DNA of 64,000 nucleotides, taken from contig CAJUPN010000004.1 in the NCBI GenBank assembly GCA_910588195.1, forward strand, positions 88,290-152,289, read 5' to 3'. Position numbers and translations under genes: made by a program. The notes below the pieces were generated by a model. The model was not told the DNA's origin. It saw only the letters and a program-made list of their open reading frames with translations, and did not search any database. This document shows, one piece after another, positions 9,585-53,590 of this stretch (within the stretch, counting starts at the first letter, position 1; each line of letters starts with the position of its first letter). This stretch comes from an uncultured Bacilli bacterium. GTDB taxonomy: Bacteria > Bacillota_I > Bacilli_A > RF39 > UBA660.

Positions 9585-11156
9585 GTGAACGATAAAAAGT
9601 ATGCTATATATTCTCGTAAATCGAAATATACAGGGAAAGGAGAAAGCACAACTAATCAAATAGAACTATGTCTAACAACCCTAAAAAACAAATTTCCAGA
9701 CATAAAAAAAGATGAAATATTAATCTATGAAGATGAAGGATTTTCAGGTTATAGCACCAATCGTCCTGCTTTTAAAAAGCTTTTAAAAGACATTGAAAAT
9801 AATAAAATAAAAATTCTCCTTTTTTATAAACTTGATCGAATAAGCAGAAACGTTAATGACTTCGCAAGATTAATGTCTCTCCTAGAAGCTCACGATGTTT
9901 CATTTCTATCAGCTACAGAAAATATTGAAACACTAACACCTAGTGGCAAAGCACTAACTTATATGATATCTGTTTTTGCTGAACTAGAAAGAAATACCAT
10001 AGCAGAAAGAATAAAAGATAATATGCTTGAACTTGCTAAATCAGGTGTTTGGCTTGGTGGAAATACTCCCACTGGTTATAGCTCAGTTGAAGAAATAAAA
10101 TTAATTAATAATAAAAAGAAAAAAACTTATTGTCTAAAAGAAAATGAGGATATCGAAAAAGTAGAACTAATCTTTAAAAACTATCTAAGACTTAAATCTT
10201 TAACAAAATTAGAGACATTCCTTTTAAATAAAAATATATTATCTATTAATTTAAAACCATACACTCGTTTTTCTTTAAAAAATATATTAACTAACCCTGT
10301 TTATGTAAAAAGTGATAAAGATATCTACAATTACTATGAGAATAAAGGAATAAATTTATATGGGGGTTCTTGGAATGGAATTAATGGCTTAATGGTTTAT
10401 AATAAAACAACTAATTTAAATCATAAAATATTAAAAAGAAAGAAAACAGAAGAATGGATTATAAGTGTCGGTAAACATAAAGGAATAATTGATGGGAAGA
10501 CATTTATAAATGTTGCAAATTTAATTGAAGCTAATAACAACATGCGATATCGTAAAACAAATTCTTTAAGAAGTCCCCTGTCAGGACTCGTAAAATGTGC
10601 TAATTGTAAATCTAACATGCGACCTAAAATAAGAAAGAATAAAGACAATGAAATCATCACTGACTATTTATGTGAATTAAAAGAAAAAAGCAAGAAGAAT
10701 TTATGTGATGCCAAAAACATAAATGGTTCAATCATTGAAGATACAATAATAAGTAATATAATGAACTTTGAAATAAATATGACTATTTTATTCAACAAAT
10801 TAAAAAAGACTCTCAAAACTGATAAAAATAGTGAAATAAAAGAAATTTCCTATAGAATAAAGAAAAATAATGAAACAATAAAAAATTTAATTGATAAAAT
10901 AAAATATATTGATATATCAATAATAGATGACATAAATAAAGAAATAAAAGAATTAAAAGAAGAAAATGCTATGTTAAACTCTAGATTAAATAAATTAAAT
11001 GCTAATTCTATAGATTTAAAAGACCTAGCCAATAAAACTATAAAGAATTATAAAAATATTAACAATTTAGATAATAAAACAAAGAAAAAATACTTACATT
11101 TATTAATAAAAGAAATCATAGCTTCAAATAATAAACTTATTATTAATTATAAATAA
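9585..11156 (+). CDS. Large serine recombinase (SpoIVCA-like) predicted to excise the sigK intervening element
   Basis: 523 aa. Resolvase catalytic domain (YSRKS...LDRISRN), recombinase domain, a Cys zinc ribbon (CANCKSN...C...C) and a C-terminal coiled coil. Sits inside the sigK-splitting element and ends 24 bp before the 3' sigK core. Confidence 0.9.
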   Translation: MNDKKYAIYSRKSKYTGKGESTTNQIELCLTTLKNKFPDIKKDEILIYEDEGFSGYSTNRPAFKKLLKDIENNKIKILLFYKLDRISRNVNDFARLMSLLEAHDVSFLSATENIETLTPSGKALTYMISVFAELERNTIAERIKDNMLELAKSGVWLGGNTPTGYSSVEEIKLINNKKKKTYCLKENEDIEKVELIFKNYLRLKSLTKLETFLLNKNILSINLKPYTRFSLKNILTNPVYVKSDKDIYNYYENKGINLYGGSWNGINGLMVYNKTTNLNHKILKRKKTEEWIISVGKHKGIIDGKTFINVANLIEANNNMRYRKTNSLRSPLSGLVKCANCKSNMRPKIRKNKDNEIITDYLCELKEKSKKNLCDAKNINGSIIEDTIISNIMNFEINMTILFNKLKKTLKTDKNSEIKEISYRIKKNNETIKNLIDKIKYIDISIIDDINKEIKELKEENAMLNSRLNKLNANSIDLKDLANKTIKNYKNINNLDNKTKKKYLHLLIKEIIASNNKLIINYK

Positions 11157-15300: not shown

Positions 15301-18300
15301 TAATAGTTAATTCTTTTTCCGTTGCCCATCCTTCATTATCTAATATATATGAAATATCTCCGATATCAGTTGTAGTAACACTTAACTGATAAGCATCTGA
15401 TATGTTGCCAGCTTTATCGGTTACTTTTATATAAACTTGATATTCTTTATTATTTTTTAATTTATTAAAAGTATATACATTATTTTTAGAAGTTATATAT
15501 TCTTCCCCATCTAAAGAATACATATAAGTATCTACTTTACTACTTTGATCTTCTGCTAAAACTTCTATAGTAAAATTACTCGACCCTTTTTCTAAAATAT
15601 TTACATCTATTATTTCTGGTTTTATCACATCAATATTAGTAATTCTTTTACTAGCTATTTCACTTTGAATTTCTACATCATTAATAGATTTAGCATATAT
15701 CGTAGCATCTTCTTTAGAAATCTTAATTGGATTTTTATAATCTAGCCAATCAGTTTCTTCTCCATCACTGTAAATAATTTTATAAAGTTTTTCTACACTT
15801 ACCTTATCATAATTAATTGCAACAGTAACTTCTTTTGTCCATTCCTCTGTTGATAAAATAAATGTTGGTGTATTAGGTTTTGCTAAATCCCATCTCATAA
15901 ATATATTTTCAGATAATTCTGATAAAGGCACATCTAAAACATAATAATCATCTTTTATAATTATTTCTTTGCCATTTTCATCTTTTATTTTTACTCCATC
16001 AGATCCAATAACTTTATCTTTGTATTCTGGTCTAATTAAGACAATCCCATGGGGGTTATATTTTTTCCATTCACCATCTTTTTTCCATTTATACTCACGA
16101 TCACTTGGATTAGACATAGTCGGATAATTTAGTTTTATTAAATAATACATTCCATTATCTAAAATCGTTAAATTATCTTTTGGTATTATATTATCTACTA
16201 ATATCTCACTTTCTCCATAATGTCCTAACGAATCTTCATTATAGGCACTTATTCTTGTATTATTAGTAATTAACTCAATTGGACCAAAATAATCAAGCCA
16301 CTCACCATCATCAAGTTTATATTTTTTTATACTTGCAGTATTAGCATATTCAATTTCAACTCTAACCCATGGGGATGGTGTTGTTGGATTTATTCTAATT
16401 AAAGGATTAGAGATACCAGTTGTTAAATAATTAACTTGCTTACTAGTTTCACCTAAACCTTTTGTATTTAAAGCATAAGCATAAACGGTTGTATTCTCAT
16501 TTATTTCAAATGGTCCATTATATTCTCTTAAGTCTCCATTCCCAATTCTATAGTATCTTCCTGTTGCTCTTTCATCATATAAAATACTAACCTCTAACTT
16601 ATCAATTAGACCTTGAACTTCATTTTCTTCTGGCGATAAAGTAATTGCTACATCTAATTTTTCTAAAGGAATTGGAGCAATTGAAGTTGTAATATTTAAT
16701 TTTTCAATTGTTATCCCATTTTTATTAGTACCCTTTGCATAAATACTTTTACTTTGATTTATTTGGATTGGTCGTTCATATCTAAAATACTCTATTCCAT
16801 TAAAAGAATATTCTAAAGTATCATAGTCACTTCCACTTATAGTAACTATTACAGAATCAATATCTTCATTCAAATAAATACTTGGACTAGCATCTATTTT
16901 TACATAAGGTTTATTGGGTTGTTTAATATTTTGAACATAATAATAAGTTACTTCTGATTTCTTATCATTCTTATTTATATAGTAAGATCTTATAATTGAG
17001 TTTTTTAAAACTTCAAAGGTATTAACATATTCCTGATAAGATCCACCATCTACACTGTAGTAAATATTTTTTGCTTCTTCCTTTGTTTTAATATCTACTG
17101 TTACCTTCTCAGTTAGAGTAGTTGGCGAAACAGATATTACTGGTCCTTCTAATCTATCAGATAAAGATACTGCTTCTATATATTTTACATCATAAGCATA
17201 TTTTCCTTTATATTCTGCTTTAGCATATATGAATGTGTTAGCACTAACTTCAAACGAATTTGTATACAAAGTATAATTTTTATTGTCTAAACTATAATAT
17301 ATTTTTGAATTAGCTTCATTACTTACTATACTTATAGTCGCTTTTTGCCCTTTTAAAAGTCGATTATGAGATGAATTAATATTTACATGCAAGTAATTTT
17401 CATCTGGATTATCTCCTCCTTCTGGATTGCCTTCACCACTTTTAAAAATTGTCTTTTGTGATCTACCAACAGCCTTTCCTGTTCTTTTTACTCCATTATC
17501 TAAATCAATTGTTCTCTCACTTTCAGCATAAGCATATACAGTTGAGTTAGCACTCACTACAAATGAACCGGTATAATCAAGCCATGCAGAATCATCAACT
17601 TTATACATTCTAACTATAGCATCATCTTCATAATCAATGCTTACATTAGTTTTTTCATTTAAATATTCTTTATCTGGATTAATATCTATCCTAACACTAC
17701 CAAAATTAAGTGAACTTTCACCCTTTTCACTTATGTAAAGAGCATCTTCACCAACTAATGTTTTTTGCATTATAACATTTCCTTCAGCATCATAAACATT
17801 TTCTTCTTTAGTTGCCCTAGCTTCAATTAAAGTATCAGCACCAACACTAAATTCTTTTTCGTACTGAATCCAATTTCCACCATTTATACGATATTCCTTA
17901 GTTTTAGCATTTTTATCATAAGTTATTTTTACATTAGTTATTTCTTCACCACTTAAAGTCATCTTGTCAGCTGATATATCAACTAAGACTTTGCCATTAG
18001 GAACATCTATTACTTTTTCTCCATCAAGATCATAACGTATATAAATATTACCTATATCACTAACCTTAACTAAAATTGGTCCAGTATAACTTTCCCAATC
18101 ATCATCTTCGCCACGGATTTCACCTTCTCTATGTAATCTCCACTCACGATTAGTTGAACCAACTGGATAATAAATATTTAATCTTATCCATCCATCCCAT
18201 TCTTCATCTTCACCATTTGGAACAATAACTTTTATATCCTTACTTACCTCAGCATAAGTTCCTGTATTAGATATAGCCTTACAACTAACCGTATATTCTC

Positions 18301-19567
18301 CTACAGCAAAATCCTCAGTTGATGAAACATTTTTACTCCAATCATGATCTAAAGCACATGAATAATTACCACCTGATGGACCAAATTCAACATGACTTGG
18401 AAGTTGATATTTTTCACCATATTCAAAAACTGCTGGTAAATCTATTAAATCAATTTTTGGTATTTCTAATTCTGGTTTAATAGGTTTTGTTGTATTAGTT
18501 GGTTTAACTGTTATTGTCTGCTCAGTAGAACTAACTGGCTTTGTTGTTGTAGACTTATCACCAGAGGAAGTTGTTGTCGTTTTAATAGGTTTTGTTGTAT
18601 TATTCTCTTCATCTAAATTTCCTGTTGGCTTAGTTTTATCTGGATTTGAATCTGGATAAACAGTCGTCCCATTGTTATAATTCGGATTATCTATCTCACT
18701 CTTATTAGTTGTATTTTCCGTATTTGAATTATCATTATTATCTTCAGAATTTGATACCCCATTATTAAAATTAGAAGTTCTTTCTGTAAATGTAACTTCA
18801 TAACTATTTAAAGCATTATCAAAAACCTTTATTGTTATCGTATATTCTGTATTTTCTTCTAAATTCTTTATAACAAAATTATTCTTTACTTCAACATACT
18901 CTTTATTGCCTATTTTATAATAATAATTTTTTATTCCCGAATCTTTGTCCCTTGCTTTAACATTTATATTAAAAGAATTAGCTGTAACACTTTTAGTAAT
19001 TGAATCAATAATTGGTGAAATATTATCAATAAGTACTTCTTCTTTGTTCGAAATAAATGAATATTTTCCATTTTTATATTTACCCTTAAAGAAAACATTC
19101 CATTTGCCTGTTTCCGCTATTTCTATACTCTTTTCTTGAGTTTCTTTCCAATCACATTTCTTACTAGATTTATTCTCAGTTACACAGTACATATAACTTT
19201 CTAACTCACTTACATCCACATCTTTTTTTACATATACTATATTACTCTTTACCCATCCATCTTCTTTACTTTCAATCAATGGACGATTATTTGTTATTAT
19301 TGATGATATACCAATATTTATAAACATCAAAAGAATCAACACTATAAAAAACAAAAGGAAAGGAAATAACCATAATTTAGAAACATAAACAGTTACTTCA
19401 TCACTGTTTTTTATCTCGCTTCCCTCTTCTGGTTCAGTTCTAATAACTCTTCCTCTTCTAATAAATAAACTAAATTCTTTTTCTTCTTTATAGTTTATCT
19501 TCTCTTTATCTAAAATCTCTTTTGCATCTTCAAATTTTTCTTTTTTTAAAACAGGTACTATTTTCAT
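12368..19567 (-). CDS. Giant (2399 aa) membrane-anchored surface protein with N-terminal PASTA-like domain, TM helix, FN3-like and chitobiase/hexosaminidase C-terminal-like repeats, and duplicated Gly-rich beta-helix-like modules
   Basis: Single uninterrupted frame with an AGGAG RBS. One TM helix at about residues 65-90. Many ...IYYSxDG...Y-type repeat domains. Two glycine-rich modules (GGGGAGGTASLNTSQGGKGTSYSGGSGG...). Confidence 0.8.
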   Translation of the reverse strand: MKIVPVLKKEKFEDAKEILDKEKINYKEEKEFSLFIRRGRVIRTEPEEGSEIKNSDEVTVYVSKLWLFPFLLFFIVLILLMFINIGISSIITNNRPLIESKEDGWVKSNIVYVKKDVDVSELESYMYCVTENKSSKKCDWKETQEKSIEIAETGKWNVFFKGKYKNGKYSFISNKEEVLIDNISPIIDSITKSVTANSFNINVKARDKDSGIKNYYYKIGNKEYVEVKNNFVIKNLEENTEYTITIKVFDNALNSYEVTFTERTSNFNNGVSNSEDNNDNSNTENTTNKSEIDNPNYNNGTTVYPDSNPDKTKPTGNLDEENNTTKPIKTTTTSSGDKSTTTKPVSSTEQTITVKPTNTTKPIKPELEIPKIDLIDLPAVFEYGEKYQLPSHVEFGPSGGNYSCALDHDWSKNVSSTEDFAVGEYTVSCKAISNTGTYAEVSKDIKVIVPNGEDEEWDGWIRLNIYYPVGSTNREWRLHREGEIRGEDDDWESYTGPILVKVSDIGNIYIRYDLDGEKVIDVPNGKVLVDISADKMTLSGEEITNVKITYDKNAKTKEYRINGGNWIQYEKEFSVGADTLIEARATKEENVYDAEGNVIMQKTLVGEDALYISEKGESSLNFGSVRIDINPDKEYLNEKTNVSIDYEDDAIVRMYKVDDSAWLDYTGSFVVSANSTVYAYAESERTIDLDNGVKRTGKAVGRSQKTIFKSGEGNPEGGDNPDENYLHVNINSSHNRLLKGQKATISIVSNEANSKIYYSLDNKNYTLYTNSFEVSANTFIYAKAEYKGKYAYDVKYIEAVSLSDRLEGPVISVSPTTLTEKVTVDIKTKEEAKNIYYSVDGGSYQEYVNTFEVLKNSIIRSYYINKNDKKSEVTYYYVQNIKQPNKPYVKIDASPSIYLNEDIDSVIVTISGSDYDTLEYSFNGIEYFRYERPIQINQSKSIYAKGTNKNGITIEKLNITTSIAPIPLEKLDVAITLSPEENEVQGLIDKLEVSILYDERATGRYYRIGNGDLREYNGPFEINENTTVYAYALNTKGLGETSKQVNYLTTGISNPLIRINPTTPSPWVRVEIEYANTASIKKYKLDDGEWLDYFGPIELITNNTRISAYNEDSLGHYGESEILVDNIIPKDNLTILDNGMYYLIKLNYPTMSNPSDREYKWKKDGEWKKYNPHGIVLIRPEYKDKVIGSDGVKIKDENGKEIIIKDDYYVLDVPLSELSENIFMRWDLAKPNTPTFILSTEEWTKEVTVAINYDKVSVEKLYKIIYSDGEETDWLDYKNPIKISKEDATIYAKSINDVEIQSEIASKRITNIDVIKPEIIDVNILEKGSSNFTIEVLAEDQSSKVDTYMYSLDGEEYITSKNNVYTFNKLKNNKEYQVYIKVTDKAGNISDAYQLSVTTTDIGDISYILDNEGWATEKELTISYPRDVYNGYSYQYSLDLGESWELYEQPLKITENNTIVVARVVDGDNIKVAASFTVSKIDKTIPTISLDGLPSIFSKDLEYVIPTSYTDGISGSNRVCKVPNSDVEYTNSSSLPVGEYTLTCEITTGAGLTAQVSKDIKVTNITVKGNSILDIIETKDLKSGYYDFEVLGTSVIYPVHMYVIEGDQRWSSDQIFGDAGDVATKNDNARNMVVVKVKGNVTIEEGVTVRPYYDELYGGPKGFTMYVTGKLENNGTIDNSHGAKAEGQDVYLWKNADGTYEYVPALGAEGGSSETTSKTKGMDGIGRQTGGGGAGGTASLNTSQGGKGTSYSGGSGGSYKANPPASDIGGQGGGGYQGWGGGAGNPGGGTPGQDKIRYGSNGTGGLLVLYANEYKNNGKLTANGARGGYGTSGGGGSGGGSINIFTNQNTGIDQLGVITNTRYNEILGISKTIGGPEYDNMCPYGDCSAGDGTINIGEVRNGTYYDLKEIIEQDKEAYKNSVTKTGDSILSIINEDIRSGYWFFKVNNEEYPVHMYVIEGDQRWSSDQIFGDAGDVATKNDNARNMVVVKVKGNVTIEEGVTVRPYYDELYGGPKGFTMYVTGKLENNGTIDNSHGAKAEGQDVYLWKNADGTYEYVPALGAEGGSSETTSKTKGMDGIGRQTGGGGAGGTASLNTSQGGKGTSYSGGSGGSYKANPPASDIGGQGGGGYQGWGGGAGNPGGGTPGQDKIRYGSNGTGGLLVLYANEYKNNGKLTANGARGGYGTSGGGGSGGGSINIFTNQNTGIDQLGVISVKGGSEYENACVYGDCSAGNGTVTVTQIALQPTSMGYSELIDVNTVQAPKFHMDSFELSSTKEITIDYPSGFINEYSLDLGQTWILYKEPIKIDKNLTIIARTRSSDNILSVASLTVTKIISEKESSILEFYQGDDYLIPTECLIDDRYYKNIKDLETGSYKLVCGSESKQIIIKKKEEITSMEVD
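12931..13717. repeat. 787-bp direct repeat, copy 1, inside the giant surface protein gene (encodes the C-proximal Gly-rich module)
   Basis: Essentially identical to 13993..14779 (offset 1062 bp, one mismatch seen). Produces identical antisense ORFs at 13072..13518 and 14134..14580. Confidence 0.9.
13993..14779. repeat. 787-bp direct repeat, copy 2, inside the giant surface protein gene
   Basis: Same as above. Separated from copy 1 by about 275 bp of unique sequence. Confidence 0.9.
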
Positions 19568-43998: not shown

Positions 43999-45276
43999 TT
44001 GGAGATGGTTATAATGGAAGATCTATACATTAAAAGAAATATTTTATGTATTGATTTAAAAAGTTTTTTTGCTTCTGTTGAATGTGTTGAAAGAAAACTC
44101 AATCCCTACACTACACCACTAGTTGTCTGTGATCCTACAAGAAATGGAGCAATAACGCTTGCTGTAACACCTTACTTAAAAAATTTTGGTATAAAAGGAA
44201 GAACTAGAGTTTATGAACTACCAAAGAATTTAAAAATCATAAAAGTTCCTCCAAGAATGCGTCTATATCAAAAAAAAAGTAAAGAAGTAATCAAAGTTTA
44301 CCTAGAATATGTAGCACCAGAAGATTTACATATTTATTCAATTGATGAATGTTTTTTAGATGTTACAAATTATTTAAAATTATATAAAAAAACAGACTAT
44401 GAATTAGCAGCTGAAATTTTAAAGAAAATAGAAGAAAAAACTGGACTTACAGCAACTGCTGGTATTGGACCAAACCTTTTACTTGCAAAAGTTAGTATGG
44501 ATATTGAAGCCAAACACACAAAAGATAACATAGCTTATTGGAAATATGAAGATATTGAACAAAAACTTTGGCCTATTAAACCATTATCAAAAATGTGGGG
44601 AATTGGCAGTCATCTTGAAAAAAAACTTAATGACATGAACATCAACTGTGTTGGTGATATCGCTAAATATGATAAAAATATATTAAAAGAAAAATTTGGT
44701 GTTATGGGAGAAGAACTATGGCTTCATGCTAATGGCATTGACACTTCTAAAATAAATGATTTAAACACTACCTTTGTAAAAGAACAAAGCTATTCTCACT
44801 CACAAGTATTATTTAAAGACTACTATGACTATAACATTAATATAATAATATTTGAAATGTTAGACGTAATGTGTCGAAGACTTAGAAAAAATAATAAACT
44901 TTGTGGTCTTATTGGTTTTGGCATATCTTACTCCAAAAATATTGGTGGTGGATTTTATCATTCTAATAAATTAATTATACAAACAGACGAATCTGCCTTT
45001 TTATATCGTGAATGTATGCGAATATTCGATAAATATTATAATAAAGCTCCAATTAGAAAAGTTTCCATCTCTTTCGGAAAACTAACAGATAATAAAAATA
45101 GACAATTGAATTTATTTGAAGATCCTCTAACATCAGAAGCAAATATTCATATAAATAAAGCTATTGATGAAATAAAAGATCGCTTCGGAGCTAATAAGAT
45201 AGTTCCAGCTATTTCATTATTAGAGGATTCAACTTTATTAGAAAGAAATAATAAAATAGGAGGACATAATGCATGA
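43999..45276 (+). CDS. Y-family (UmuC/DinB-like) translesion DNA polymerase
   Basis: ILCIDLKSFFASVE... catalytic N-terminus and palm/finger motifs. Followed by a YolD-like gene as in the Bacillus uvrX/yqjW loci. Confidence 0.85.
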   Translation: MEMVIMEDLYIKRNILCIDLKSFFASVECVERKLNPYTTPLVVCDPTRNGAITLAVTPYLKNFGIKGRTRVYELPKNLKIIKVPPRMRLYQKKSKEVIKVYLEYVAPEDLHIYSIDECFLDVTNYLKLYKKTDYELAAEILKKIEEKTGLTATAGIGPNLLLAKVSMDIEAKHTKDNIAYWKYEDIEQKLWPIKPLSKMWGIGSHLEKKLNDMNINCVGDIAKYDKNILKEKFGVMGEELWLHANGIDTSKINDLNTTFVKEQSYSHSQVLFKDYYDYNINIIIFEMLDVMCRRLRKNNKLCGLIGFGISYSKNIGGGFYHSNKLIIQTDESAFLYRECMRIFDKYYNKAPIRKVSISFGKLTDNKNRQLNLFEDPLTSEANIHINKAIDEIKDRFGANKIVPAISLLEDSTLLERNNKIGGHNA

Positions 45277-45584
45277 GTGATCGTGGAATAATAAAATGGG
45301 CTCCATTTTCATCAGTTATAAATGGAAACATTTTATTAAAAGAAATCCATGAAGAGAAATCACGAATTATCAAACCAACATTATCAGAAGAACAAATTCA
45401 AGAATTAGAAGATAAAATATTAGAAAAATACAATAATAAAACACTTGTAACTATCTTTTTTTACAAAAGTGAACATATTTATATATTAAAAGGCATAATA
45501 TCTAAAATAAACACAGCTACTAAAGAAATTACTGTAAATAATCAAAAAGTAATATTTTTTTCTAATATTATACGAATTATCTAA
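45273..45584 (+). CDS. YolD-like protein (partner of Y-family polymerase)
   Basis: 103 aa (IIKWAPFSSV...). Overlaps the polymerase stop codon. Typical YolD size and position. Confidence 0.65.
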   Translation: MSDRGIIKWAPFSSVINGNILLKEIHEEKSRIIKPTLSEEQIQELEDKILEKYNNKTLVTIFFYKSEHIYILKGIISKINTATKEITVNNQKVIFFSNIIRII

Positions 45585-45636: not shown

Positions 45637-45713
45637 GGGGAATTAGCTCAGCTGGCTAGAGCACCACGCTTGCACCGTGGGGGTCAGGGGTTCGAATCCC
45701 CTATTCTCCACCA
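45637..45713 (+). tRNA. tRNA-Ala (anticodon UGC), encoded CCA
   Basis: GGGGAATTAGCTCAGCTGGCTAGAGC... cloverleaf with anticodon loop CTTGCAC (TGC), T-arm GGTTCGAATCC, and acceptor stem plus ACCA. The 3' 23 nt are part of the prophage att repeat. Confidence 0.9.
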
Positions 45714-45716
45714 TTA
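45691..45716. repeat. attL: 26-bp direct repeat TTCGAATCCCCTATTCTCCACCATTA (tRNA-Ala 3' end)
   Basis: Exact second copy at 53552..53577. The integrase gene lies immediately inside the repeat. Confidence 0.85.
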
Positions 45717-45873
45717 ATATTAGCAACAATACAAGTTAATCTAATAATCATAATTTCTAGTGTGATTAGAAAGGATGATTAAAAATGTCAAATACAGACA
45801 AAACAAAATTGTTTATAAGTGTATGCATTGCAATTACATTTATAATAATAGCTTTAAATTAAAAGCTAAAAGA

Positions 45874-46797
45874 TTAAATTTTTTCCAGAATGTTTAATCT
45901 TAAAGAATTTAGAGTACTAAGTACTCTTTTTTCTTGTTCTAAATTACAATGAACATAGATGTCTAATGTAGTACTAATTTTAGAGTGCCCTAAACGTTTA
46001 GACACATCATTTATAGGTATTCCCTCGTTAACTAATAAAGTCGCGTGAGAATGTCTAAATTGATGTAATGTTATAGTTCTAATATTAGCTTTAGAACAAG
46101 CTTTCAATTTAACTCTATTAATAGTGGTCGGAGCTAAAGGTTTAATTCCACCAAATATATAATAATCAAAACATTCATCACCATATAAATTAATATAGTA
46201 TTCTTTTAAATTACATAATTCATTAACTAAATAGTCATCAATAACAATTTCACGATAACTTGAAATATTTTTAGGAGTATCTAATTCACGACCACCTTTA
46301 GTAGTCAAATTGTGATTAATATAAATATAATTACCAATTAAATCACTAAATTTTAAAGCCATAGCTTCACCGGGTCTAGCACCTGTAAAAAATAAAAATG
46401 TAAAAAACAATTTATACATATAATCATCAACACCACTAATAAATAAATTGAATTCATCTAATGTATAATAATCATATTTCTTTAATTCGTATTTTCTTTT
46501 AAAATTACCTATTTCTTTAAGATAATTACAAGATAAATCTAAATAATCACAACAAAATTGTATAAATTGATTAAAACAAACATACAAATTATTATTAAAG
46601 CTATTAGAATAATTCATACTAATAATAGTATTTTTCCATTTAAGATAATCTAATTTAGTTAACTCAAATATATCAAAACCTTTAAAATAAGGCATAACAT
46701 GTAAATTAAAATTTTTCCAGAATGTTTCTAGTGTTTGTTTTTTTAGGTGACTAGTACCTAATTCTAAATATTTTTTGTATGCATTTTCAAAAAGCAT
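45874..46797 (-). CDS. Tyrosine-type site-specific integrase
   Basis: 307 aa. Catalytic residues in context: ...RPGEAMALKFSDL (Arg), HQFRHSHATLL (HxxR), GHSKISTTLDIYVH (Tyr). Adjacent to tRNA and attL. Confidence 0.9.
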   Translation of the reverse strand: MLFENAYKKYLELGTSHLKKQTLETFWKNFNLHVMPYFKGFDIFELTKLDYLKWKNTIISMNYSNSFNNNLYVCFNQFIQFCCDYLDLSCNYLKEIGNFKRKYELKKYDYYTLDEFNLFISGVDDYMYKLFFTFLFFTGARPGEAMALKFSDLIGNYIYINHNLTTKGGRELDTPKNISSYREIVIDDYLVNELCNLKEYYINLYGDECFDYYIFGGIKPLAPTTINRVKLKACSKANIRTITLHQFRHSHATLLVNEGIPINDVSKRLGHSKISTTLDIYVHCNLEQEKRVLSTLNSLRLNILEKI

Positions 46798-46913
46798 AGT
46801 TTATCCCCTCTTTTCCGAGGGTGTATTTTAAATCTTTTATATAATCTTGTCAAACCACCTCACTTATGAGATAGTATACCATAAATTATTAACATATATC
46901 ATTAATTTTAATA

Positions 46914-47069
46914 TTAATCAAAAAATTCACGAAAAGAACAAGCTATATTAAAAAAAAATAATAAAGCAGCAATTAATAATAAAGGTATTCTTTCTTCAGA
47001 AAAATTACTAATTATAGAAAATATAGAATAAAGATTTATACTTGATAAAATTAAATAAAAAAACGTCAT
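46914..47069 (-). CDS. Small hydrophobic protein (51 aa) immediately downstream of rep
   Basis: AAAGGTGG RBS then ATG. Two hydrophobic stretches. Below the ORF-track size cutoff. Confidence 0.3.
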   Translation of the reverse strand: MTFFYLILSSINLYSIFSIISNFSEERIPLLLIAALLFFFNIACSFREFFD

Positions 47070-47075
47070 AAAATA

Positions 47076-47687
47076 TTACCACCTTTCATTATAATCAAAT
47101 CTACTATTATATTCATCTAAGACAGATTTATAATATGATAAATTTCTTCTAAATACATTCCAAAGTCCAATATTTCTTGCATAAGCTCCTAATTGGCTCA
47201 TTTTTACACGTTGAGTAGAATTCTTTAAAAAATCTTCTATCTTTTCAGTTTGTTCTTCTTCTGATGTATCATCAAAAATAAGTTTACGAAATCTTTTTAT
47301 TAAATTAATGTTTAAGCTTTCAACCTCATCTACTGAGTATTGATATTTATTATCACAACCATAGTGTATTAAATATTTCAAAGCTCCGTTAAAACTTCTT
47401 TTAATAGGTTCTATCATATGTTCATCAATATTACATATCTTAGCTATTGATGAAATTGTTTTTGCATTCTTACACTTTATAACAAAATGATAATGGGGCT
47501 TTTTTTGTTCACCTGCAGAATGTAATAAATTCATATTTTCATCATACAAATCTTCATCAAATAAATCTTTATCATGTCTTATATATATACAATCATAATT
47601 CATCTTCAAAGCAACAAATTGTTCTTGAAATCTTTTATCATCTTCATATATTACACAAGTAAAATTATAAAATCTTTTATTATTCAT
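47076..47687 (-). CDS. Rolling-circle replication initiator (HUH endonuclease superfamily Rep)
   Basis: 203 aa. Motif 1-like FTCVIY, motif 2 KPHYHFVIKC (His-hydrophobic-His), motif 3 tyrosine region ALKYLIHYG. Size and motifs resemble small pC194-type Reps. Confidence 0.55.
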   Translation of the reverse strand: MNNKRFYNFTCVIYEDDKRFQEQFVALKMNYDCIYIRHDKDLFDEDLYDENMNLLHSAGEQKKPHYHFVIKCKNAKTISSIAKICNIDEHMIEPIKRSFNGALKYLIHYGCDNKYQYSVDEVESLNINLIKRFRKLIFDDTSEEEQTEKIEDFLKNSTQRVKMSQLGAYARNIGLWNVFRRNLSYYKSVLDEYNSRFDYNERW

Positions 47688-47862
47688 ATTTAAGCCTTTC
47701 TATATTTTTATAAACATATATATCTAAAACACAACAATCATTTTTTTTACTATCAATAAAGCAAAATAATTCCGAAAGAGTATTAAAATGTTTATACAAT
47801 TCCTTTTTTCCAAAAGCAGTATTAACAATGTAACAAACTATAAAATTAGACATCGATTTCAC
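47680..47862 (-). CDS. Small phage protein (60 aa), GTG start with a TAAGGAG RBS
   Basis: Strong SD 8 nt upstream. Overlaps the rep start. Confidence 0.3.
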   Translation of the reverse strand: MKSMSNFIVCYIVNTAFGKKELYKHFNTLSELFCFIDSKKNDCCVLDIYVYKNIERLKYE

Positions 47863-48154
47863 TCTCCTTAATTTCTATAAATTTACTTTGTTTCTTTAAT
47901 TGTTTTTCTAAACCTTTTTTCAGTTCTTTGTTATAACATTCAATAGTCATTAATAAACTATTATCTTTTTTTACAAATAATTTAAATACGTATCGTTTCA
48001 TCATAAACCACCTCAACAACTCTATATCTTAAAAAATTGTATTTAACATTATTTTTTTTGCAATATTTAATTGCATAATCAAGTATCTTATATTCTTTGA
48101 CATCAACGTAATGTTCAAGAATTCCCAATTGAACAATATATCTTTTCATATAAA

Positions 48155-48343
48155 TCAAAATCTTTCTTCAGTTGAAATTTCAAATAATTCATTATCATAA
48201 ATAGATTTAATATAAACAAATGAATACATTTCTTTATAACGTTTATATAATCTTCTTGCATAATAATAATCATAAGTAATAGCTAACAAACTACAAGAAT
48301 TATAATTAGAATCGATTTTAAATATTAAATATCTTTTTTTCAT
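48155..48343 (-). CDS. Small basic phage protein (62 aa; candidate ssDNA-binding or regulatory protein)
   Basis: Tyr/Arg/Lys-rich 62 aa. Position just after the intergenic hairpins. Confidence 0.3.
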   Translation of the reverse strand: MKKRYLIFKIDSNYNSCSLLAITYDYYYARRLYKRYKEMYSFVYIKSIYDNELFEISTEERF

Positions 48344-48589
48344 TTTTTTAAATAACCTTTCTTATCTAAATATTTTTGTCTATAACAAGACCAATCTTTA
48401 CATTTAGTACAATCGCCTTTATATTTTTTACAATAATGTTTATTAGTTAGATAAAAGAAAATAAAATCAATAAAACAGTAAACAATAGCAAATATAATAA
48501 TTTTAATCATAAAAAACTCTTTTCTATTAATTTCATAATTTACATAAATTACACAAATGTTGCTTATAGTCGTAGTCCATGCAACATTT

Positions 48590-48730
48590 ATGTTTTTTCA
48601 ACATAATTACTTGGTCTACAATTATTACGGCTCTATCGAGCCTATAGCTCGAGTTTTAACGGAAGTTAAAACTTCGAGCTTTATAGAGCTTTGCTCTTAT
48701 CTCTAAGAGTTAGAGTTACGACGTCTCTCA
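48590..48730. promoter_or_regulatory. Hairpin-rich intergenic region of the prophage (candidate replication origin or packaging signal)
   Basis: Adjacent stem-loops include GGCTC-TATC-GAGCC and the near-perfect palindrome CTCGAGTTTTAACGGAAGTTAAAACTTCGAG. Also has direct repeats CGTCTCTCACG and CGTCTTTCACG. It is the only GC-balanced non-coding stretch in the element. Confidence 0.45.
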
Positions 48731-48840
48731 CGTCTTTCACGCAATTTAAGTATAATCTTCGTAGATAGTCTAAGAAGAATATAAATAATAATCATAGAAA
48801 ATAAGAATATCAAAGAAATATTTCTTATAGTTAAAAGCAT
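48703..48840 (-). CDS. 45-aa hydrophobic peptide with Arg-rich C-terminus (candidate virion coat protein)
   Basis: AAGGGGG RBS 7 nt upstream of the ATG. Sequence is MLLTIRNISLIFLFSMIIIYILLRLSTKIILKLRERRERRRNSNS. Confidence 0.4.
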   Translation of the reverse strand: MLLTIRNISLIFLFSMIIIYILLRLSTKIILKLRERRERRRNSNS

Positions 48841-48852
48841 AAAAACACCCCC

Positions 48853-49125
48853 TTACTCACTTGAAATTGGTATTTTTCTTATTATCCAAATCACAAAATT
48901 ATACACATGTTCAAAATTTTCAACTAATATTATCAAAGGTACTAAAGCTTTGATTAATGGTATTGAAACAAAATAACCTAATAATTCTACATTATCAAAA
49001 ATCAAATTAGTAAAGTTTTCTAACGAGTTAATTAAAAAATCTGGAAGTGAAGGCAAATCAGGAATAATAAAAAACAAAGTCTTTAAAATGCCAATAACAC
49101 TTGCAAATAACCATTCTAATATCAT
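48853..49125 (-). CDS. Small multi-TM membrane protein (90 aa; pVI-like candidate minor coat or assembly protein)
   Basis: Three hydrophobic segments. Start overlaps the upstream gene. Confidence 0.35.
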   Translation of the reverse strand: MILEWLFASVIGILKTLFFIIPDLPSLPDFLINSLENFTNLIFDNVELLGYFVSIPLIKALVPLIILVENFEHVYNFVIWIIRKIPISSE

Positions 49126-49316
49126 TTATTATCACTCTCACTTTCTAATACTAATTCATAATCAAAACAGTTTCCGTCAATTTTTACACAGTATTTATCT
49201 TTAAATGAAGATGACAAAGATAAACCAGTAACACCTAAAATTTCATGTTTAGACCAAATAATACAACCATTTGGCAAATCACATATTTTTATCTTATTTT
49301 TCATTTCTTCACCCAC
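49122..49316 (-). CDS. Small soluble Cys-containing protein (64 aa)
   Basis: ORF overlaps the upstream gene's stop and the downstream gene's start (ATGA-type coupling). Confidence 0.3.
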   Translation of the reverse strand: MGEEMKNKIKICDLPNGCIIWSKHEILGVTGLSLSSSFKDKYCVKIDGNCFDYELVLESESDNK

Positions 49317-50701
49317 TCTCGAGTAATCTTACTTTTTTTATAAGATTTAGAATGTCTAAAAGAAGTAGAACTGTGTACAACACCTTTTTCATCGACAGTA
49401 TATCCGTCACTTTCAATTAAAGTCTCCGTAGGCTCGCTTGAACCACCAAAAATACTAGTATACTTTTTAGCACATAACATTAAGAAAGCGATTACAATAG
49501 TTCCATTTATTATAATAAAAGTTACATCGTGAATTCTTTTTAATTCAACTTTCTCTAAAGTAGAAGCTAAATCATATGAAAAACCTTTAATTATAACTGA
49601 ATTAAACAAAGGAACTTTTATGTTAGGAACTTCTATCAAATAATGTCCCGTATCTTTTAAAGACAAAAATCTATTTAAGAAATCTATGGTGAAAGTTATA
49701 GGCTGTCCTAAAAATCCGAGCTTTTTATCAAACCAGTCCATAAAATCAGTAGCCATTCCACTAAAGACTTCTTTATCAGGAATGAACAATTTAGTAAAAA
49801 AATCAAGTAAACCGTCCAACCATTTATTTATAGAAGAATTAATATTTTTTATTGCACAATCGATTACACCATCACATTCAATTGTTTCATCAGGATTGGC
49901 GATATCATCAGGAAGAGTTCCAACATAACATTCACTGTCAAAACCTTGTCTAAAAATATCAAAAACCTCTCTTGATACATTCGTCCACCCCTCAGTTCCT
50001 AATGAAGTAGTAGCCTTAGAGGAACTTTTCAAATTAAAACCTAAAATATAAATATCTTCCGTTAAATTAGTATCACTTGTTATATTTAATACTAAGTGAT
50101 TTTTAGCTTTATCACCTTTTAGCTCAAATCTAAAATGTAATATACTTATTTGCATATTTTCATTCTTATGATAAAAACTATGTTGATTAACATAATCATT
50201 ATAATCACTTGGCATTGTATCATGATAAGAGCCACTTGGTAGAACACCAACAGAAGATGAAATATTATTATAAGTTTTTCTTAAACTAAATTTAGTATCT
50301 TTTAAAGAGCCTAAAAACACATAACCCTCATAATTGCTTTGTAAATTCCAATACTTTCCATTTTCTCCCCATTTATCCAAATTATGAGGGAAAAATTCAA
50401 ACTGTATCGTAGAACCATACGAAGTATCAAAGAATACATCTCTTAGCTTGACAGCTCTATAATTAGAGTTACCTATGACATAAGCATTTCCAGTATAAAG
50501 ATTATTAGTATCCTCAGAGGAAATACTTAAAAACGATGTTCCATTATTGTGACTACCATTATTTTGTACTGCATAAGCTTTATTTGGTATAAACTCACAA
50601 TTATTATAAAACATAGACTCGTCAACAGCCTTAACTTGATATGGAACTATAAAACATAATAATAAAGCAAATGCTATTAATAAATTAACTCTTTTCATCA
50701 T
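49301..50701 (-). CDS. pIII-like adsorption or minor coat protein candidate (signal peptide, C-terminal membrane anchor)
   Basis: 466 aa. N-terminal signal peptide (LLIAFALLLCFIVPYQVKA). C-terminal TM helix (VTFIIINGTIVIAFLMLCA) followed by a basic tail. Confidence 0.45.
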   Translation of the reverse strand: MMKRVNLLIAFALLLCFIVPYQVKAVDESMFYNNCEFIPNKAYAVQNNGSHNNGTSFLSISSEDTNNLYTGNAYVIGNSNYRAVKLRDVFFDTSYGSTIQFEFFPHNLDKWGENGKYWNLQSNYEGYVFLGSLKDTKFSLRKTYNNISSSVGVLPSGSYHDTMPSDYNDYVNQHSFYHKNENMQISILHFRFELKGDKAKNHLVLNITSDTNLTEDIYILGFNLKSSSKATTSLGTEGWTNVSREVFDIFRQGFDSECYVGTLPDDIANPDETIECDGVIDCAIKNINSSINKWLDGLLDFFTKLFIPDKEVFSGMATDFMDWFDKKLGFLGQPITFTIDFLNRFLSLKDTGHYLIEVPNIKVPLFNSVIIKGFSYDLASTLEKVELKRIHDVTFIIINGTIVIAFLMLCAKKYTSIFGGSSEPTETLIESDGYTVDEKGVVHSSTSFRHSKSYKKSKITREWVKK

Positions 50702-51237
50702 TTCACACCCCTATTAAATAAACGTCTTAAAAAACTTACAAGAAGTATCACACACAATATTAAAGCAATTGTATATAAGATATTATTGGTACTAGTCATA
50801 TCTAAACTAGGGATTTCTGTAGAAGATGAAGAATTTTCTTTTAGTAAAGTTTTTAATTCTTCATCTCTTTTTTTCTGATAATAATCAGTTTCTAAAAGTA
50901 AATCTTTTTTTAACTTATTATTTGTAAATTTATGAGAAAATAATACGTTAGAATAACCTTGTGAATTTTGAGAAACAGTTCCATATTTAGCATAAGAACC
51001 CTTATAAACACCATCACAAAAAGTTAAAACACCAGTAGCATTGCCAACATTATCGCCTTGAACATTCAAGTCATCTTTACCAATAAAACAAAGATACTCA
51101 GTTTGTCCAGAAGAACAATTCTTTGTATATGACAAAGTATCACAATAATACTTTGTTTGGTTCCAAGAGGGATATAACTCATTAGGTTGCAAACGATAAT
51201 ATAAATAGCTTTTTAAAGTACTTTCATCAGGTATCAT
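50698..51237 (-). CDS. C-terminally anchored Cys-rich protein (179 aa), translationally coupled to the pIII-like gene
   Basis: No signal peptide. C-terminal TM helix ILYTIALILCVILLVSFL followed by RRLFNRGVK. ATGA overlap with the downstream gene. Confidence 0.4.
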   Translation of the reverse strand: MIPDESTLKSYLYYRLQPNELYPSWNQTKYYCDTLSYTKNCSSGQTEYLCFIGKDDLNVQGDNVGNATGVLTFCDGVYKGSYAKYGTVSQNSQGYSNVLFSHKFTNNKLKKDLLLETDYYQKKRDEELKTLLKENSSSSTEIPSLDMTSTNNILYTIALILCVILLVSFLRRLFNRGVK

Positions 51238-51378
51238 AATTCACACTAAAGTTTCAAATTACGTCCGAAAACAAAATCAAAAAACATGGTAGTAATTTTT
51301 TCGAATAAAGCAATTATTAAAGCTAAGGGGAATGATATAGCTATTAAGTTTGTAAATATATCAATAAATATTTGATAG

Positions 51379-52101
51379 TTAACTTCCATAATCAAAACTT
51401 TCCTTTCTAACACCAACGTTAAGATTTTTATTATCTATAACCGCAAGTGTATCATATCTTTTAAACATATCGGGACTTCTAAAAAAATAAAATTTCTTTA
51501 TAATCTTTGCTTTAAGAACTTGTCCCGATGAGTCATCAGTTTCTAAAGATGATTTATTGATAAGCGAATTTATTTGTAAATATCCTCTTAAATAAGATTT
51601 ACAATAAATTAAGCTATCAAAATGACGTCTTAAAGCAATATTAAGTTGACCAAAATATTGAGTAGTAGCGACAATGTGAATTCGTTGTTTTCTTTGCTGA
51701 CATATTTCTTGAAGTACCGCAGGATCTAAATTGTTATTTCCTTTTTGTGAACCAAAATATAAATGTATTTCATCAATTAAGAAAATAACTCCATTTATCC
51801 CATTTTTATATTTTAATATGTCTTTAGCTACTTTAAATTCAAATACACGTTTTTCATCTATTTCATAATCAGTCAATTTTAAATTAGTAACTATAATAGA
51901 TTTAGGATACATGTAAAGCAAATTATAAACATAATTAACTGCTGACAAACTTTTACCACTACCTTGTGAACCTATAAAGCAAATCAATCCATCTGGCTTA
52001 AAGTATGTGGGATTTTCTTTATAAAAACGTCTATAATATGAACTTGTTTTAAATATATTTTTTATTCCTAAATCTTCCGTTAAAGCTAATCTACTAATCA
52101 T
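51379..52101 (-). CDS. Zot/pI-family filamentous-phage assembly ATPase (P-loop NTPase)
   Basis: Walker A ICFIGSQGSGKS. Walker B VIFLIDEIH. Family motif RKQRIHIVATTQ. Confidence 0.75.
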   Translation of the reverse strand: MISRLALTEDLGIKNIFKTSSYYRRFYKENPTYFKPDGLICFIGSQGSGKSLSAVNYVYNLLYMYPKSIIVTNLKLTDYEIDEKRVFEFKVAKDILKYKNGINGVIFLIDEIHLYFGSQKGNNNLDPAVLQEICQQRKQRIHIVATTQYFGQLNIALRRHFDSLIYCKSYLRGYLQINSLINKSSLETDDSSGQVLKAKIIKKFYFFRSPDMFKRYDTLAVIDNKNLNVGVRKESFDYGS

Positions 52102-52181
52102 AATAATTTATAGGGGAAATATTTTTTAAAAAAATGGAAATGTATTTTATCACACTTCCATTTTTTTATGAGGAAACTACA

Positions 52182-52394
52182 CTACACTTGTATACGTCCA
52201 CCAAATACTGCTGCAGTAAATGCACCAATTGCTTTTCTAACACCGAACCACATTAATACAAATCCCATTCCTACACCAACTATTGAAGCAAGTACGGCGA
52301 TTAATTGTTCTGGTGTGATTGCACTTGTTAAAGCAGTAATTAAAGGTTGAACGTTAACTGTGCTTGTAGAAGTTTCTGTTAAGAAAACCCCCAT
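52182..52394 (-). CDS. 70-aa coat-protein-like peptide (acidic N-terminus, TM helix, basic C-terminus)
   Basis: AAAGGAG RBS. Sequence is MGVFLTETSTSTVNVQPLITALTSAITPEQLIAVLASIVGVGMGFVLMWFGVRKAIGAFTAAVFGGRIQV. Locally GC-richer than its surroundings. Confidence 0.5.
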   Translation of the reverse strand: MGVFLTETSTSTVNVQPLITALTSAITPEQLIAVLASIVGVGMGFVLMWFGVRKAIGAFTAAVFGGRIQV

Positions 52395-53317
52395 ATTTCA
52401 CACTCCTTTTCATTCTTTTTTTTTTTTTTTTATTTCCTTTAAACAAGGAAATAATCTATATTAACTAACTAAAACAGGGTGTTAGTTAATAGCTTAATTT
52501 TTTTTATTTTCCAATGCTGATAATTTCTTATTTTGTTCAATAATCATCTTATCAGCTTCGTCTAAAAACACTTGCTTTGTATATCCTGGTGCTAATTCTA
52601 CTAAAAGTACTGTATAATCATTACCAGTCTTTGCAGATGTTCTCGTCTCAATTTTACAATTCATCAAATAAACCTCTCTTTCTAAAAATATAAAACGGCA
52701 GAAAGAAGAAGAAATATTTTTTTATCAGCTTATTGGGGATAAGAGGTTAACAAGTAGTACATAGAAAATAAAAAACAACTAAAAATTATTTAAATTTCCA
52801 CATTAATTAAAGTCTAGAAAGAACTTTTTTATATACTTTTTTTTCATCTCTTCTCTTTCTAATTACATTATAAATGTGAAAAAATCTATATTGGCTTTTT
52901 TGGAGCATTTTTTTCTTTTTTTTTAAAACTTTTTTTATTCTCACAAAAAAATGCAGTAAAAACTATCGAATAAAAAAAGAATTTTTTGCTTTTTTACGTG
53001 AGCAGACTTACCTTTTGTGTACACTTTTTTTATAACTATTAGATTAAGACTTTTAAGTTATGAGACTTACTTTATTTAGATTTTTTAAAAATTTATTCCA
53101 ATTTCTTTGTTTTAAATAGGTTCCCATATATATTAATTTTTGAAATAGCAAGCAAAACATTTTCATGTTATAGCTTGTAAGCATTGAATTAATATATATG
53201 CCTATTAAAACAAATTTTCTCGGCATAAAAATAAAAAATCATCTTAATTTATAATTTGATTATTCTTAACCAGGGGGGGACTTTGACGCAAAAAATTAAA
53301 GAAAAAAAGATGTATTT

Positions 53318-53521
53318 CTACATCTCTTTTAAAAATCTATATACTTTATAAGTGCGATTATCAATTGTTGCACATATATAAGGAAGTAATCTTCTGTTAT
53401 AAAAATAATTTAAATCTCTCTTTCTTATTCCTGTTAAATCACATAACGATAAATCATCATCACATAAATAACAAGGAAAATCATCTAAATTATATATAAC
53501 ATAAAAATATTGTCTTTTCAA
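53318..53521 (-). CDS. Small Cys-containing hypothetical protein (67 aa) at the attR-proximal end of the prophage
   Basis: ORF only. Candidate phage regulator. Confidence 0.25.
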   Translation of the reverse strand: MKRQYFYVIYNLDDFPCYLCDDDLSLCDLTGIRKRDLNYFYNRRLLPYICATIDNRTYKVYRFLKEM

Positions 53522-53551
53522 AGTTTCCTTTCTAGATTATTTATATACGGC

Positions 53552-53577
53552 TTCGAATCCCCTATTCTCCACCATTA
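53552..53577. repeat. attR: second copy of the 26-bp repeat TTCGAATCCCCTATTCTCCACCATTA
   Basis: Exact match to the tRNA-Ala 3' end at 45691..45716. Confidence 0.85.
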
Positions 53578-53590
53578 GTAAGATATTAAA

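Follow-up and report, generated by a model that had tools for sequence, protein, structure and literature searches.

A probable inovirus-type prophage integrated at tRNA-Ala in an uncultured low-GC gut Bacilli genome

[quoted passage not shown] Gradient-purified pig faecal viromes, in which filaments were also seen, yielded 344 inovirus contigs (272 circular), of which 52% carried a B5-type gene product I (gpI) and for which the predicted hosts were mostly Firmicutes, chiefly Clostridium (Billaud 2021, PMC9723715), and inovirus prophages of Enterocloster, 6.5-8.5 kb in length, have been demonstrated to be secreted (Burckhardt 2023, PMC10061712). A 2026 preprint names B5, Philemon and CAK1 as the only characterised Gram-positive filamentous phages and describes the field as 'largely unexplored' (10.64898/2026.07.11.737922). 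The present analysis concerns a window of 64 kb, meaning the whole stretch of contig CAJUPN010000004.1 that was analysed, from a metagenome-assembled genome (MAG) of a Bacilli bacterium. It contains an element of 7,861 bp which is very probably a temperate inovirus-type (Tubulavirales) prophage, located in the 3' end of a tRNA-Ala(UGC) gene of a very low-GC monoderm member of the gut Bacilli. The element displays the genomic traits of inoviruses, namely a length within the range of ~4.5-12 kb, short genes on one strand, a rolling-circle initiator, a pI ATPase and short transmembrane (TM) proteins. An earlier reading made from the sequence only (hereafter the sequence-only reading) had presented tRNA integration of such a phage in such a host as a poorly described combination; this overstated its novelty, because tRNA/integrase att sites and Firmicute gut inoviruses are covered by the publications cited above (PMC6813254, PMC9723715, PMC10061712), and the general picture of inovirus biology is left unchanged.

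The integration site is defined by three features, numbered, as all coordinates below, by position in the window:

45637-45713, plus strand: tRNA-Ala(UGC), the integration target (ARAGORN; Rfam RF00005, 68 bits)
45691-45716: attL core, an exact 26-bp repeat TTCGAATCCCCTATTCTCCACCATTA consisting of the tRNA 3' end plus 3 nt (repeat search)
53552-53577: attR core, where the 26-bp repeat TTCGAATCCCCTATTCTCCACCATTA recurs (repeat search)

This tRNA-Ala(UGC) is the sole tRNA that ARAGORN finds in the window, and it is kept intact after insertion, the 26-bp core regenerating its end. The two cores are identical at 26 of 26 bp and are enclosed in a 32-nt pair with two mismatches as given by the repeat finder (45688-45719 and 53549-53580), while the distance from start to start equals the element unit of 7,861 bp. 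Both the coordinates and the gene inventory that the sequence-only reading had given for a 7.9-kb insert between repeats derived from the tRNA 3' end are correct. That reading had been made to depend on family matches for its Zot-like and Rep proteins, which both proved significant (see below), and on the existence of an empty site, which was found in a near-identical strain. Public assemblies were searched with the exact protein of the YolD-like flank gene (45273-45584), which gave 23 long contigs, 10 with the element and 13 empty, the latter passing from tRNA-Ala directly to the 181-aa gene of the right flank. In one empty-site contig (L010) the tRNA reads ...GGGGTTCGAATCCCCTATTCTCCACCATTA and is followed by GTAAGATATT..., that is, left flank, a single copy of the core and right flank; the left flank matches the window at 99.9% identity and the right flank at 99.7%, with 29 nt common to both alignments, corresponding to the single core. 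In view of the 13 empty sites and the near-identical flanks of L010, the element is therefore polymorphic among near-identical strains and does not belong to the core genome; the insertion is precise, being present in some of these strains and absent from others. The host has a GC content of ~26%. The AT-rich composition of the element is similar to that of its flanks, and this, with nothing more, would favour a chance repeat within a conserved core genome; such an explanation is refuted by the precise empty site in conspecifics, and the exact 26-bp repeat moreover coincides with a tRNA 3' end, so that its probability is practically negligible. An exact match to the Zot protein is listed for 1,287 assembly blocks, and one to the YolD protein for 1,665.

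Two observations concern the neighbourhood of this site. A gene pair encoding a Y-family DNA polymerase and the YolD-like protein (43999-45584, plus strand) lies directly upstream of tRNA-Ala and is host flank, being present at empty sites too. In L010 an IS110-family transposase insertion (L010 3594-4799) adjoins priA and is not found in the window, and strains therefore differ in other mobile elements too.

All plausible genes between the att cores are on the minus strand. The assembly ATPase and the morphogenesis candidates that accompany it are as follows:

51379-52101, minus strand: Zot/pI-type assembly ATPase, 240 aa, with no TM segment (PF05707, phrog_197)
51246-51389, minus strand: 47-aa single-TM protein (ORF47; ORF, open reading frame), overlapping the Zot stop codon (KD19 2.36)
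52182-52394, minus strand: major coat protein candidate, 70 aa (ORF70), with ribosome-binding site (RBS) AAGGAG and one TM segment
49301-50701, minus strand: pIII-like adsorption-protein candidate, 466 aa (ORF466), by hydropathy, conservation and an AlphaFold2 (AF2) model
48853-49125, minus strand: pVI-like 90-aa protein (ORF90) with two TM segments, by hydropathy and synteny

The ATPase matches PF05707 with 31.2 bits (cut-off 20.3) and phrog_197 'Zot-like' at 7e-9, and both its Walker A (GSQGSGKS) and Walker B (LIDE) motifs are invariant in the family. When a profile of 15 Zot sequences was compared with the pI (Orf8) of phage B5, hhalign returned a probability of 92.7% and an E value of 4e-7 over 176 columns, extending well past the P-loop, which upholds the Zot/pI label of the sequence-only reading. 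A tblastn search with Zot against phage records gave 19 records, all annotated as inoviruses; they comprise 'bajarodino viruses' from rodents and 'Inovirus sp.' from pigs, with circular genomes of 4-9 kb. Bajarodino virus 41 is 60% identical to the element in the coat candidate, 40% in Zot, 32% in the C-region of ORF466 and 42% in ORF90, and bajarodino virus 55 is 59% identical in the integrase and 37% in Rep; the two relatives share different gene sets with the element, which is therefore a mosaic of two modules, one for morphogenesis and one for replication and integration. The morphogenesis genes are thus common to circular faecal-virome genomes deposited as inoviruses, and the identification of the insert as an inovirus is supported. 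IMG/VR gave no match when searched with a single protein, whereas the Zot profile retrieved 107 contigs from it, mostly of 4-8 kb and six with terminal repeats. In GTDB species genomes the profile found 63 loci, nearly all in gut Bacilli, 'Tenericutes', Clostridia or Oscillospiraceae MAGs, with Clostridium sp. OF03-18AA and Marasmitruncus among the isolates.

TM segments were scored by the KD19 maximum, with the known TM segment of M13 pI (1.31) as control. Zot reaches 0.78 and the pI of B5 1.03; among 120 Zot homologs a value of 1.3 is attained by five, always at the Walker A strand. The 47-aa ORF47 is kept just downstream of Zot in 11 related loci and is probably the membrane partner of the TM-less ATPase, judging from its position and hydropathy. 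We infer that lack of a TM segment in the ATPase is a trait of the monoderm lineage, the anchor possibly being supplied in trans.

ORF70 has the layout of a filamentous coat protein candidate, with a neutral to acidic N-terminus, a single TM segment (28-53) and RK thereafter. Its homologs comprise 53 distinct coat-like sequences across loci, with a basic C-terminus in all and an AxA signal peptide in some, and eight of 18 members of the family match phrog_2186 'virion structural protein', the best at 6e-6. ORF466 carries, by hydropathy, a signal-like hydrophobic segment (1-27) and a C-proximal TM segment (390-414), and its C-region (293-420) is conserved in relatives, which the N-domain is not. 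An AF2 model built on a 13-sequence alignment predicts a beta-sandwich at residues ~40-260 with pLDDT of ~80-90, the rest being of low confidence; the top Foldseek matches, none of them significant, are lectin-like or carbohydrate-binding modules and receptor-binding domains of phage baseplates or toxins. The modelled fold is compatible with an adsorption protein and gives no evidence of g3p homology, so that of the pIII-like protein announced by the sequence-only reading the signal-like N-terminus and C-proximal TM segment stand, and 'pIII-like' denotes architecture only. ORF90 is present in most of the 63 related loci and follows the 466-aa gene with ORF64 alone between them, similar to B5, in which Orf7 (90 aa) follows Orf6 (485 aa). 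Further ORFs of this region are:

49122-49316, minus strand: soluble protein of 60-64 aa (ORF64), without Pfam or PHROG family match
50698-51237, minus strand: 179-aa protein (ORF179) with C-terminal TM anchor and basic tail, by hydropathy; minor virion or assembly candidate
48703-48840, minus strand: 45-aa peptide (ORF45) with N-terminal TM segment and Arg-rich tail, RBS AGGGGGTG; minor virion or assembly candidate
52494-52664, minus strand: soluble protein of 56 aa, encoded immediately upstream of the coat gene, without significant family match

By position only, the 56-aa soluble protein could be a single-stranded DNA (ssDNA)-binding or regulatory protein. The prediction of at least six hydrophobic or basic-tailed peptides of 90 aa or less is borne out by hydropathy, which counts six hydrophobic ones, some basic-tailed (ORF70, ORF47/56, ORF90, ORF45, ORF56b and ORF51), with a single TM segment each in ORF70, ORF47 and ORF45. 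The good RBSs noted earlier are likewise present (AAGGAG for ORF70, AGGGGGTG for ORF45 and AAAGGTGG for ORF51). As a side observation, ORF70 is rich in Ala, Gly and Val, and the neighbouring small ORFs are rich in Asn, Lys and Ile.

The replication and integration genes, their neighbouring small ORFs and, at the attR end, one further non-coding region and one further ORF are:

45874-46797, minus strand: tyrosine integrase, 307 aa (PF00589 1.4e-19; PF14659, SAM-like N-domain; phrog_1 9e-55)
46914-47069, minus strand: 51-aa small protein (ORF51) with two hydrophobic segments, by hydropathy; RBS AAAGGTGG
47076-47687, minus strand: HUH rolling-circle initiator Rep of pMV158 RepB type, 203 aa (PF01719 Rep_OBD, 3.5e-15)
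47680-48510, minus strand: five small ORFs of 56-62 aa upstream of rep, from the ORF list; accessory or regulatory module
48540-48700, minus strand: probable double-strand origin with four hairpins, from ssDNA folding, motif and relatives
52668-53317: 650-bp non-coding region, ~75% conserved in variant L019
53318-53521, minus strand: 67-aa ORF (ORF67) adjoining attR, by position and a shared motif; excision or regulatory candidate

The integrase gene ends ~157 nt from the attL core, which agrees with the tyrosine integrase that the sequence-only reading had placed beside attL. TTGACA-17-TAAAAT upstream of it is a consensus match only; a promoter scan found fewer sites than in shuffled sequences and is uninformative because of this and because the DNA is AT-rich. 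Rep matches PF01719 with 56.7 bits (cut-off 24.6), the match covering residues 2-126, and the motifs RHDKD and HYH are readable in its sequence (H38/D41; H65-Y-H67), residues which we take to correspond to the RepB metal ligands. The earlier assignment of a 203-aa HUH Rep is thus right as to HUH (PF01719 3.5e-15); the family is that of pMV158 RepB, and neither Phage_CRI nor Rep_trans.

It has been reported that RepB of pMV158 cuts 5'-TACTACG/AC-3' in the loop of the hairpin IR-I (PMC1851628). In the element, the 190-bp gap that separates ORF45 from the small-ORF block (48511-48702) folds as ssDNA at -32.2 kcal/mol compared with -11.5 +/- 2.6 for shuffles (z = -8.07), and in the last of its hairpins (48551-48593, minus strand) a stem of 13 bp closes the 17-nt loop ATGGACTACGACTATAA (48564-48580). 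Within this loop lies GACTACGAC (48569-48577), which agrees with the pMV158 site at 8 of 9 positions; ACTACGAC, a match to the 9-mer nicked in pMV158, is found a single time in the 64 kb, and a nick is predicted between 48571 and 48570 on the minus strand. The shorter pattern TACTACD was rejected as an origin marker, with 31 matches in the window against ~22 expected and hence no enrichment, only the longer ACTACGAC being informative. Nick hairpins of relatives were located by a per-sequence stem search; in seven divergent relatives with a homologous Rep the motif is placed in a 10-16-nt loop on a 9-15-bp stem, the exact 9-mer in 6 of 7, and the stem sequences are mutually unrelated. The motif is kept in the loops on co-varying stems that differ in sequence, which is the pattern expected of a conserved structure, and hairpin 48551-48593 is the probable replication origin containing the nick site. 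The predicted nick falls on the coding strand, and the displaced, packaged strand would therefore be coding-sense. In Ff phages the packaged strand is likewise coding-sense. Of the hairpin-rich intergenic region proposed in the sequence-only reading, the 650-bp region (52668-53317) folds no better than shuffles (z = -1.15) and was discarded in that role, and the description applies to the 190-bp gap instead. Promoters presumably lie in the 650-bp region, and possibly the packaging signal or the minus-strand origin. It contains a 14-bp inverted repeat, perfect and made up of A and T only (53125-53138 and 53187-53200, with a 48-nt spacer), which could be a minus-strand origin, a packaging signal or a chance occurrence in AT-rich DNA.

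Scans of nine small element ORFs with Pfam and PHROG gave no significant family. ORF67 shares, by eye, YFxVIYxxxDD with the coding sequence directly after the integrase of bajarodino virus 55 (L001 4521-4790), and a tblastn search of ORF67 against that genome gave nothing significant. When variant L006 (13593-14285) is set beside positions 47846-48840 of the window, the small-ORF block between ORF90 and Rep is seen to be exchanged for ORFs of 74, 58 and 52 aa, ORF45 also being absent from L006; this comparison indicates that the block is a swappable accessory cassette just around the probable origin.

That Rep and its nick site are of a plasmid family raises the question of a non-viral element, namely an integrated rolling-circle plasmid or integrative mobilisable element in which a pMV158-type replicon and an integrase would be combined with an unrelated operon for a membrane ATPase, a view to which the closeness of the Zot score (31 bits) to that of generic AAA (30 bits) and the lack of annotation for most ORFs also lend themselves. 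Nevertheless, the ATPase aligns to B5 pI beyond the P-loop and travels with coat-, pIII- and pVI-like genes in circular virome genomes that were deposited as inoviruses and in IMG/VR viral contigs, the same morphogenesis module is found with other Reps (REP_ORF2-G2P in bajarodino virus 41, Rep_1 in B5), and relaxase, Mob and conjugation families gave no match among the element ORFs scanned; such a non-viral element is accordingly very improbable. Secretin families likewise had no match among these ORFs, as the sequence-only reading had anticipated.

The closest integrated relatives, in MAGs of gut Bacilli and 'Tenericutes', have the same architecture, each at a tRNA gene and with a homologous integrase adjacent:

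18-bp repeat at tRNA-Asn, 7,853 bp
28-bp repeat at tRNA-Ala, 7,870 bp
19-bp repeat at tRNA-Gly, 6,291 bp
28-bp repeat at tRNA-Lys, 7,815 bp

In the circular genome of bajarodino virus 55 (L001 4522-4545), TGGGGCGAAATATGGGATTTCGA directly follows the integrase stop codon; read as its reverse complement it corresponds to a tRNA 3' end, and it is plausibly the attP for some tRNA. At the same att site as the element, variant L013 (Logan ERR12319662) has an integrase, coat and ORF57 that are 100% identical to those of the element, with Zot at 94%, ORF466 at 80% and ORF90 at 73% in the stretch compared with positions 48853-52101 of the window, a mosaicism that suggests recombination in the assembly and adsorption genes. 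Ratios of nonsynonymous to synonymous substitution rates (dN/dS) were computed against two variants, with Zot 91% and 94% identical, and amounted to 0.09-0.10 for Zot, 0.05-0.18 for Rep, 0.28 for the coat candidate, 0.19-0.20 for ORF47, 0.19-0.22 for ORF90, 0.19-0.49 for ORF466 and 0.22-0.42 for ORF179. These ratios indicate that the core genes are under purifying selection; values near 1 for ORF45 (0.84-1.25) and ORF67 point to weak constraint. A variant with 91% Zot identity (L012/L019, GCA_964458035.1, a 6,564-bp contig) is binned in a MAG of Muribaculaceae (Bacteroidota), probably through a binning error, and its contig starts within ~26 nt of the expected att boundary.

Taken as an inovirus-type prophage, the element would function as follows. 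The integrase, possibly together with the 67-aa ORF, would recombine attL with attR and release a circle, on which the RepB-type Rep would cut GACTACG/AC in the coding strand, within the loop that hairpin 48551-48593 presents, and initiate rolling-circle synthesis of coding-sense ssDNA. Once coated, this ssDNA would be assembled by the Zot/pI ATPase, probably with the 47-aa TM protein, and pushed out across the single membrane as a filament of the 70-aa coat protein capped by the 466-aa adsorption and 90-aa pVI-like proteins. A secretin would not be needed because the host has no outer membrane.

A number of results weigh against this reading. A circular ssDNA genome in a filamentous virion that is extruded without lysis is a prediction, on which the circular virome genomes of relatives and the B5-type inoviruses reported from virus-like particles (PMC9723715) bear indirectly, and the coat, pIII-like and pVI-like candidates owe their labels to size, TM pattern, synteny and weak profile matches. 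The ORF70-family profile has a lone match in the PDB, the Pf3 coat 1IFP, which is not significant (E 0.83), and against the B5 coat it reaches 18.8%, a level at which homology is not demonstrable. Foldseek comparison of ORF466 with the PDB yielded no structure at E <= 0.001 and none that matched g3p, and no ssDNA-binding protein was identified among the element ORFs. The TM domain of pI was not found in Zot by KD19, while genuine pI clusters were required to have 1-2 TM domains by one published pipeline (Roux 2019, PMC6813254), a requirement that is a curation criterion of that detection pipeline and not a taxonomic definition. Finally, the attP junction of the excised circle, reconstructed as ...ATACGGC-TTCGAATCCCCTATTCTCCACCATTA-ATATTAGC... 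and searched as 41-nt and 30-nt patterns, had no match in IMG/VR or in Joint Genome Institute (JGI) metagenomes, where the host is rare.

The last of these results would also be expected of a cryptic or defective inovirus prophage which no longer excises or forms particles and persists as a strain-variable island, as would the dN/dS of ~1 in ORF45 and ORF67 and the finding that at least 1000 contigs carry a 100% identical Zot at this locus, for which vertical inheritance could be the reason. On the other hand, the core genes are all intact and under purifying selection, the att cores are still identical, and strains with flanks 99.7-99.9% identical differ in whether they carry the element. The same-site variants are, moreover, mosaic (integrase and coat 100%, ORF466 80%, ORF90 73%), and recent exchange among circulating elements is therefore indicated. 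Decay of the element is for these reasons unlikely, and a temperate inovirus-type prophage is retained as the preferred interpretation.

With regard to the host, 26 host ORFs in the window were checked, 20 against NCBIfam or Pfam and six flank genes by precomputed Pfam matches. A sortase (6248-7006, plus strand), which supports a Gram-positive wall, and weak LtaS-like matches (both far below the NCBIfam cut-off) fit a walled monoderm host, as do MurG and FtsQ-type genes. No sporulation gene was found among the 26 host ORFs, save for a weak SleB-type Hydrolase_2 domain (29 bits) in a 600-aa protein (7615-9417, minus strand). The host is annotated as a 'Bacilli bacterium' MAG, and its designation as a sporeformer in the sequence-only reading is not established, because this weak domain is the sole spore-related hint. 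Elsewhere in the window, a large serine recombinase of 523 aa (9585-11156, plus strand), with CcrC/XisF-like matches well below cut-off, may mark another mobile or excisable element, and an ORF of 2,399 aa (12368-19567, minus strand), with an N-terminal PASTA domain and repeats of Fn3 and CHB_HEX_C type, is probably a giant surface protein.

Gram-positive filamentous phages are barely characterised, and the majority of gut 'Firmicute inovirus' sequences come as circular contigs to which no host is assigned. At this locus such a virus is connected with one particular uncultured host, with exact attL, attR and attB and with carriage that varies among near-identical strains in many metagenomes; what is added here is the empty site, the host link and a testable origin. 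A narrower proposal, to which slightly less than even chances may be given, is that the element represents an undescribed tRNA-integrating inovirus lineage, specific to uncultured, reduced-genome gut Bacilli and 'Tenericutes'-like MAGs, with an ATPase that has lost any TM segment and is dependent on a 47-aa TM partner and an origin of pMV158 type. Should filament formation be shown, no inovirus would have been linked to this host group before it; its att sites and origin are defined, and it offers a natural presence/absence polymorphism.

Among known systems, the Firmicute gut inoviruses with B5-type gpI (bajarodino viruses 41 and 55, porcine 'Inovirus sp.' MT1353xx and uncultivated viral genomes of IMG/VR) have the same module order of coat, Zot, small TM protein, pIII-like and pVI-like protein, a Zot that is 37-40% identical to that of the element and, as in the element, small unidirectional genes and no secretin. 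Bajarodino virus 55 additionally has a RepB-type Rep, a related integrase and a tRNA-like attP, as in the element, whereas bajarodino virus 41 has no integrase and a Rep of another family (REP_ORF2-G2P), the element having an integrase and Rep_OBD. The element differs from these viruses in an extra block of five small ORFs and in being integrated, with host flanks, att sites and an empty allele, while they are circular contigs, 4-8 kb in length, that lack a host. Propionibacterium phage B5 (Paulinoviridae, Bifilivirus) is a filamentous phage of a monoderm host whose pI is homologous to the Zot of the element and also lacks a hydrophobic segment on the KD19 scale, and in which a protein of 485 aa with TM segments at both termini precedes a 90-aa TM protein, as ORF466 and ORF90 do here; it has a signal-less coat of 57 aa, a rolling-circle Rep of a plasmid family and no secretin. 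In contrast to the element, B5 has no integrase or att site, infects a high-GC actinobacterial host, carries its pI gene after pVI, where the Zot gene of the element comes right after the coat gene, and uses a Rep of the Rep_1 family (PF01446) in place of Rep_OBD.

The prophages of Enterocloster and Hungatella resemble the element in size (6.5-8.5 kb), pI, direct repeats and Gram-positive gut hosts, although their hosts are Clostridia (Lachnospiraceae) and the paper names neither an integrase nor a tRNA, the likeness being drawn from its description (PMC10061712). The pMV158 replicon shares with the element a Rep_OBD with RHDKD and HYH and a nick motif in a hairpin loop upstream of rep, but is a plasmid, and counterparts of its bind locus or its CopG/RNAII copy control were not identified in the element (no search was made for iterons). 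Lastly, the tRNA-integrating inovirus prophages of Gram-negative bacteria, which unlike the element have diderm hosts, secretin-dependent export and a pI with a C- or N-terminal TM segment, have in common with it, together with the att class of Roux 2019 (PMC6813254), the tyrosine recombinase and the repeat derived from a tRNA 3' end.

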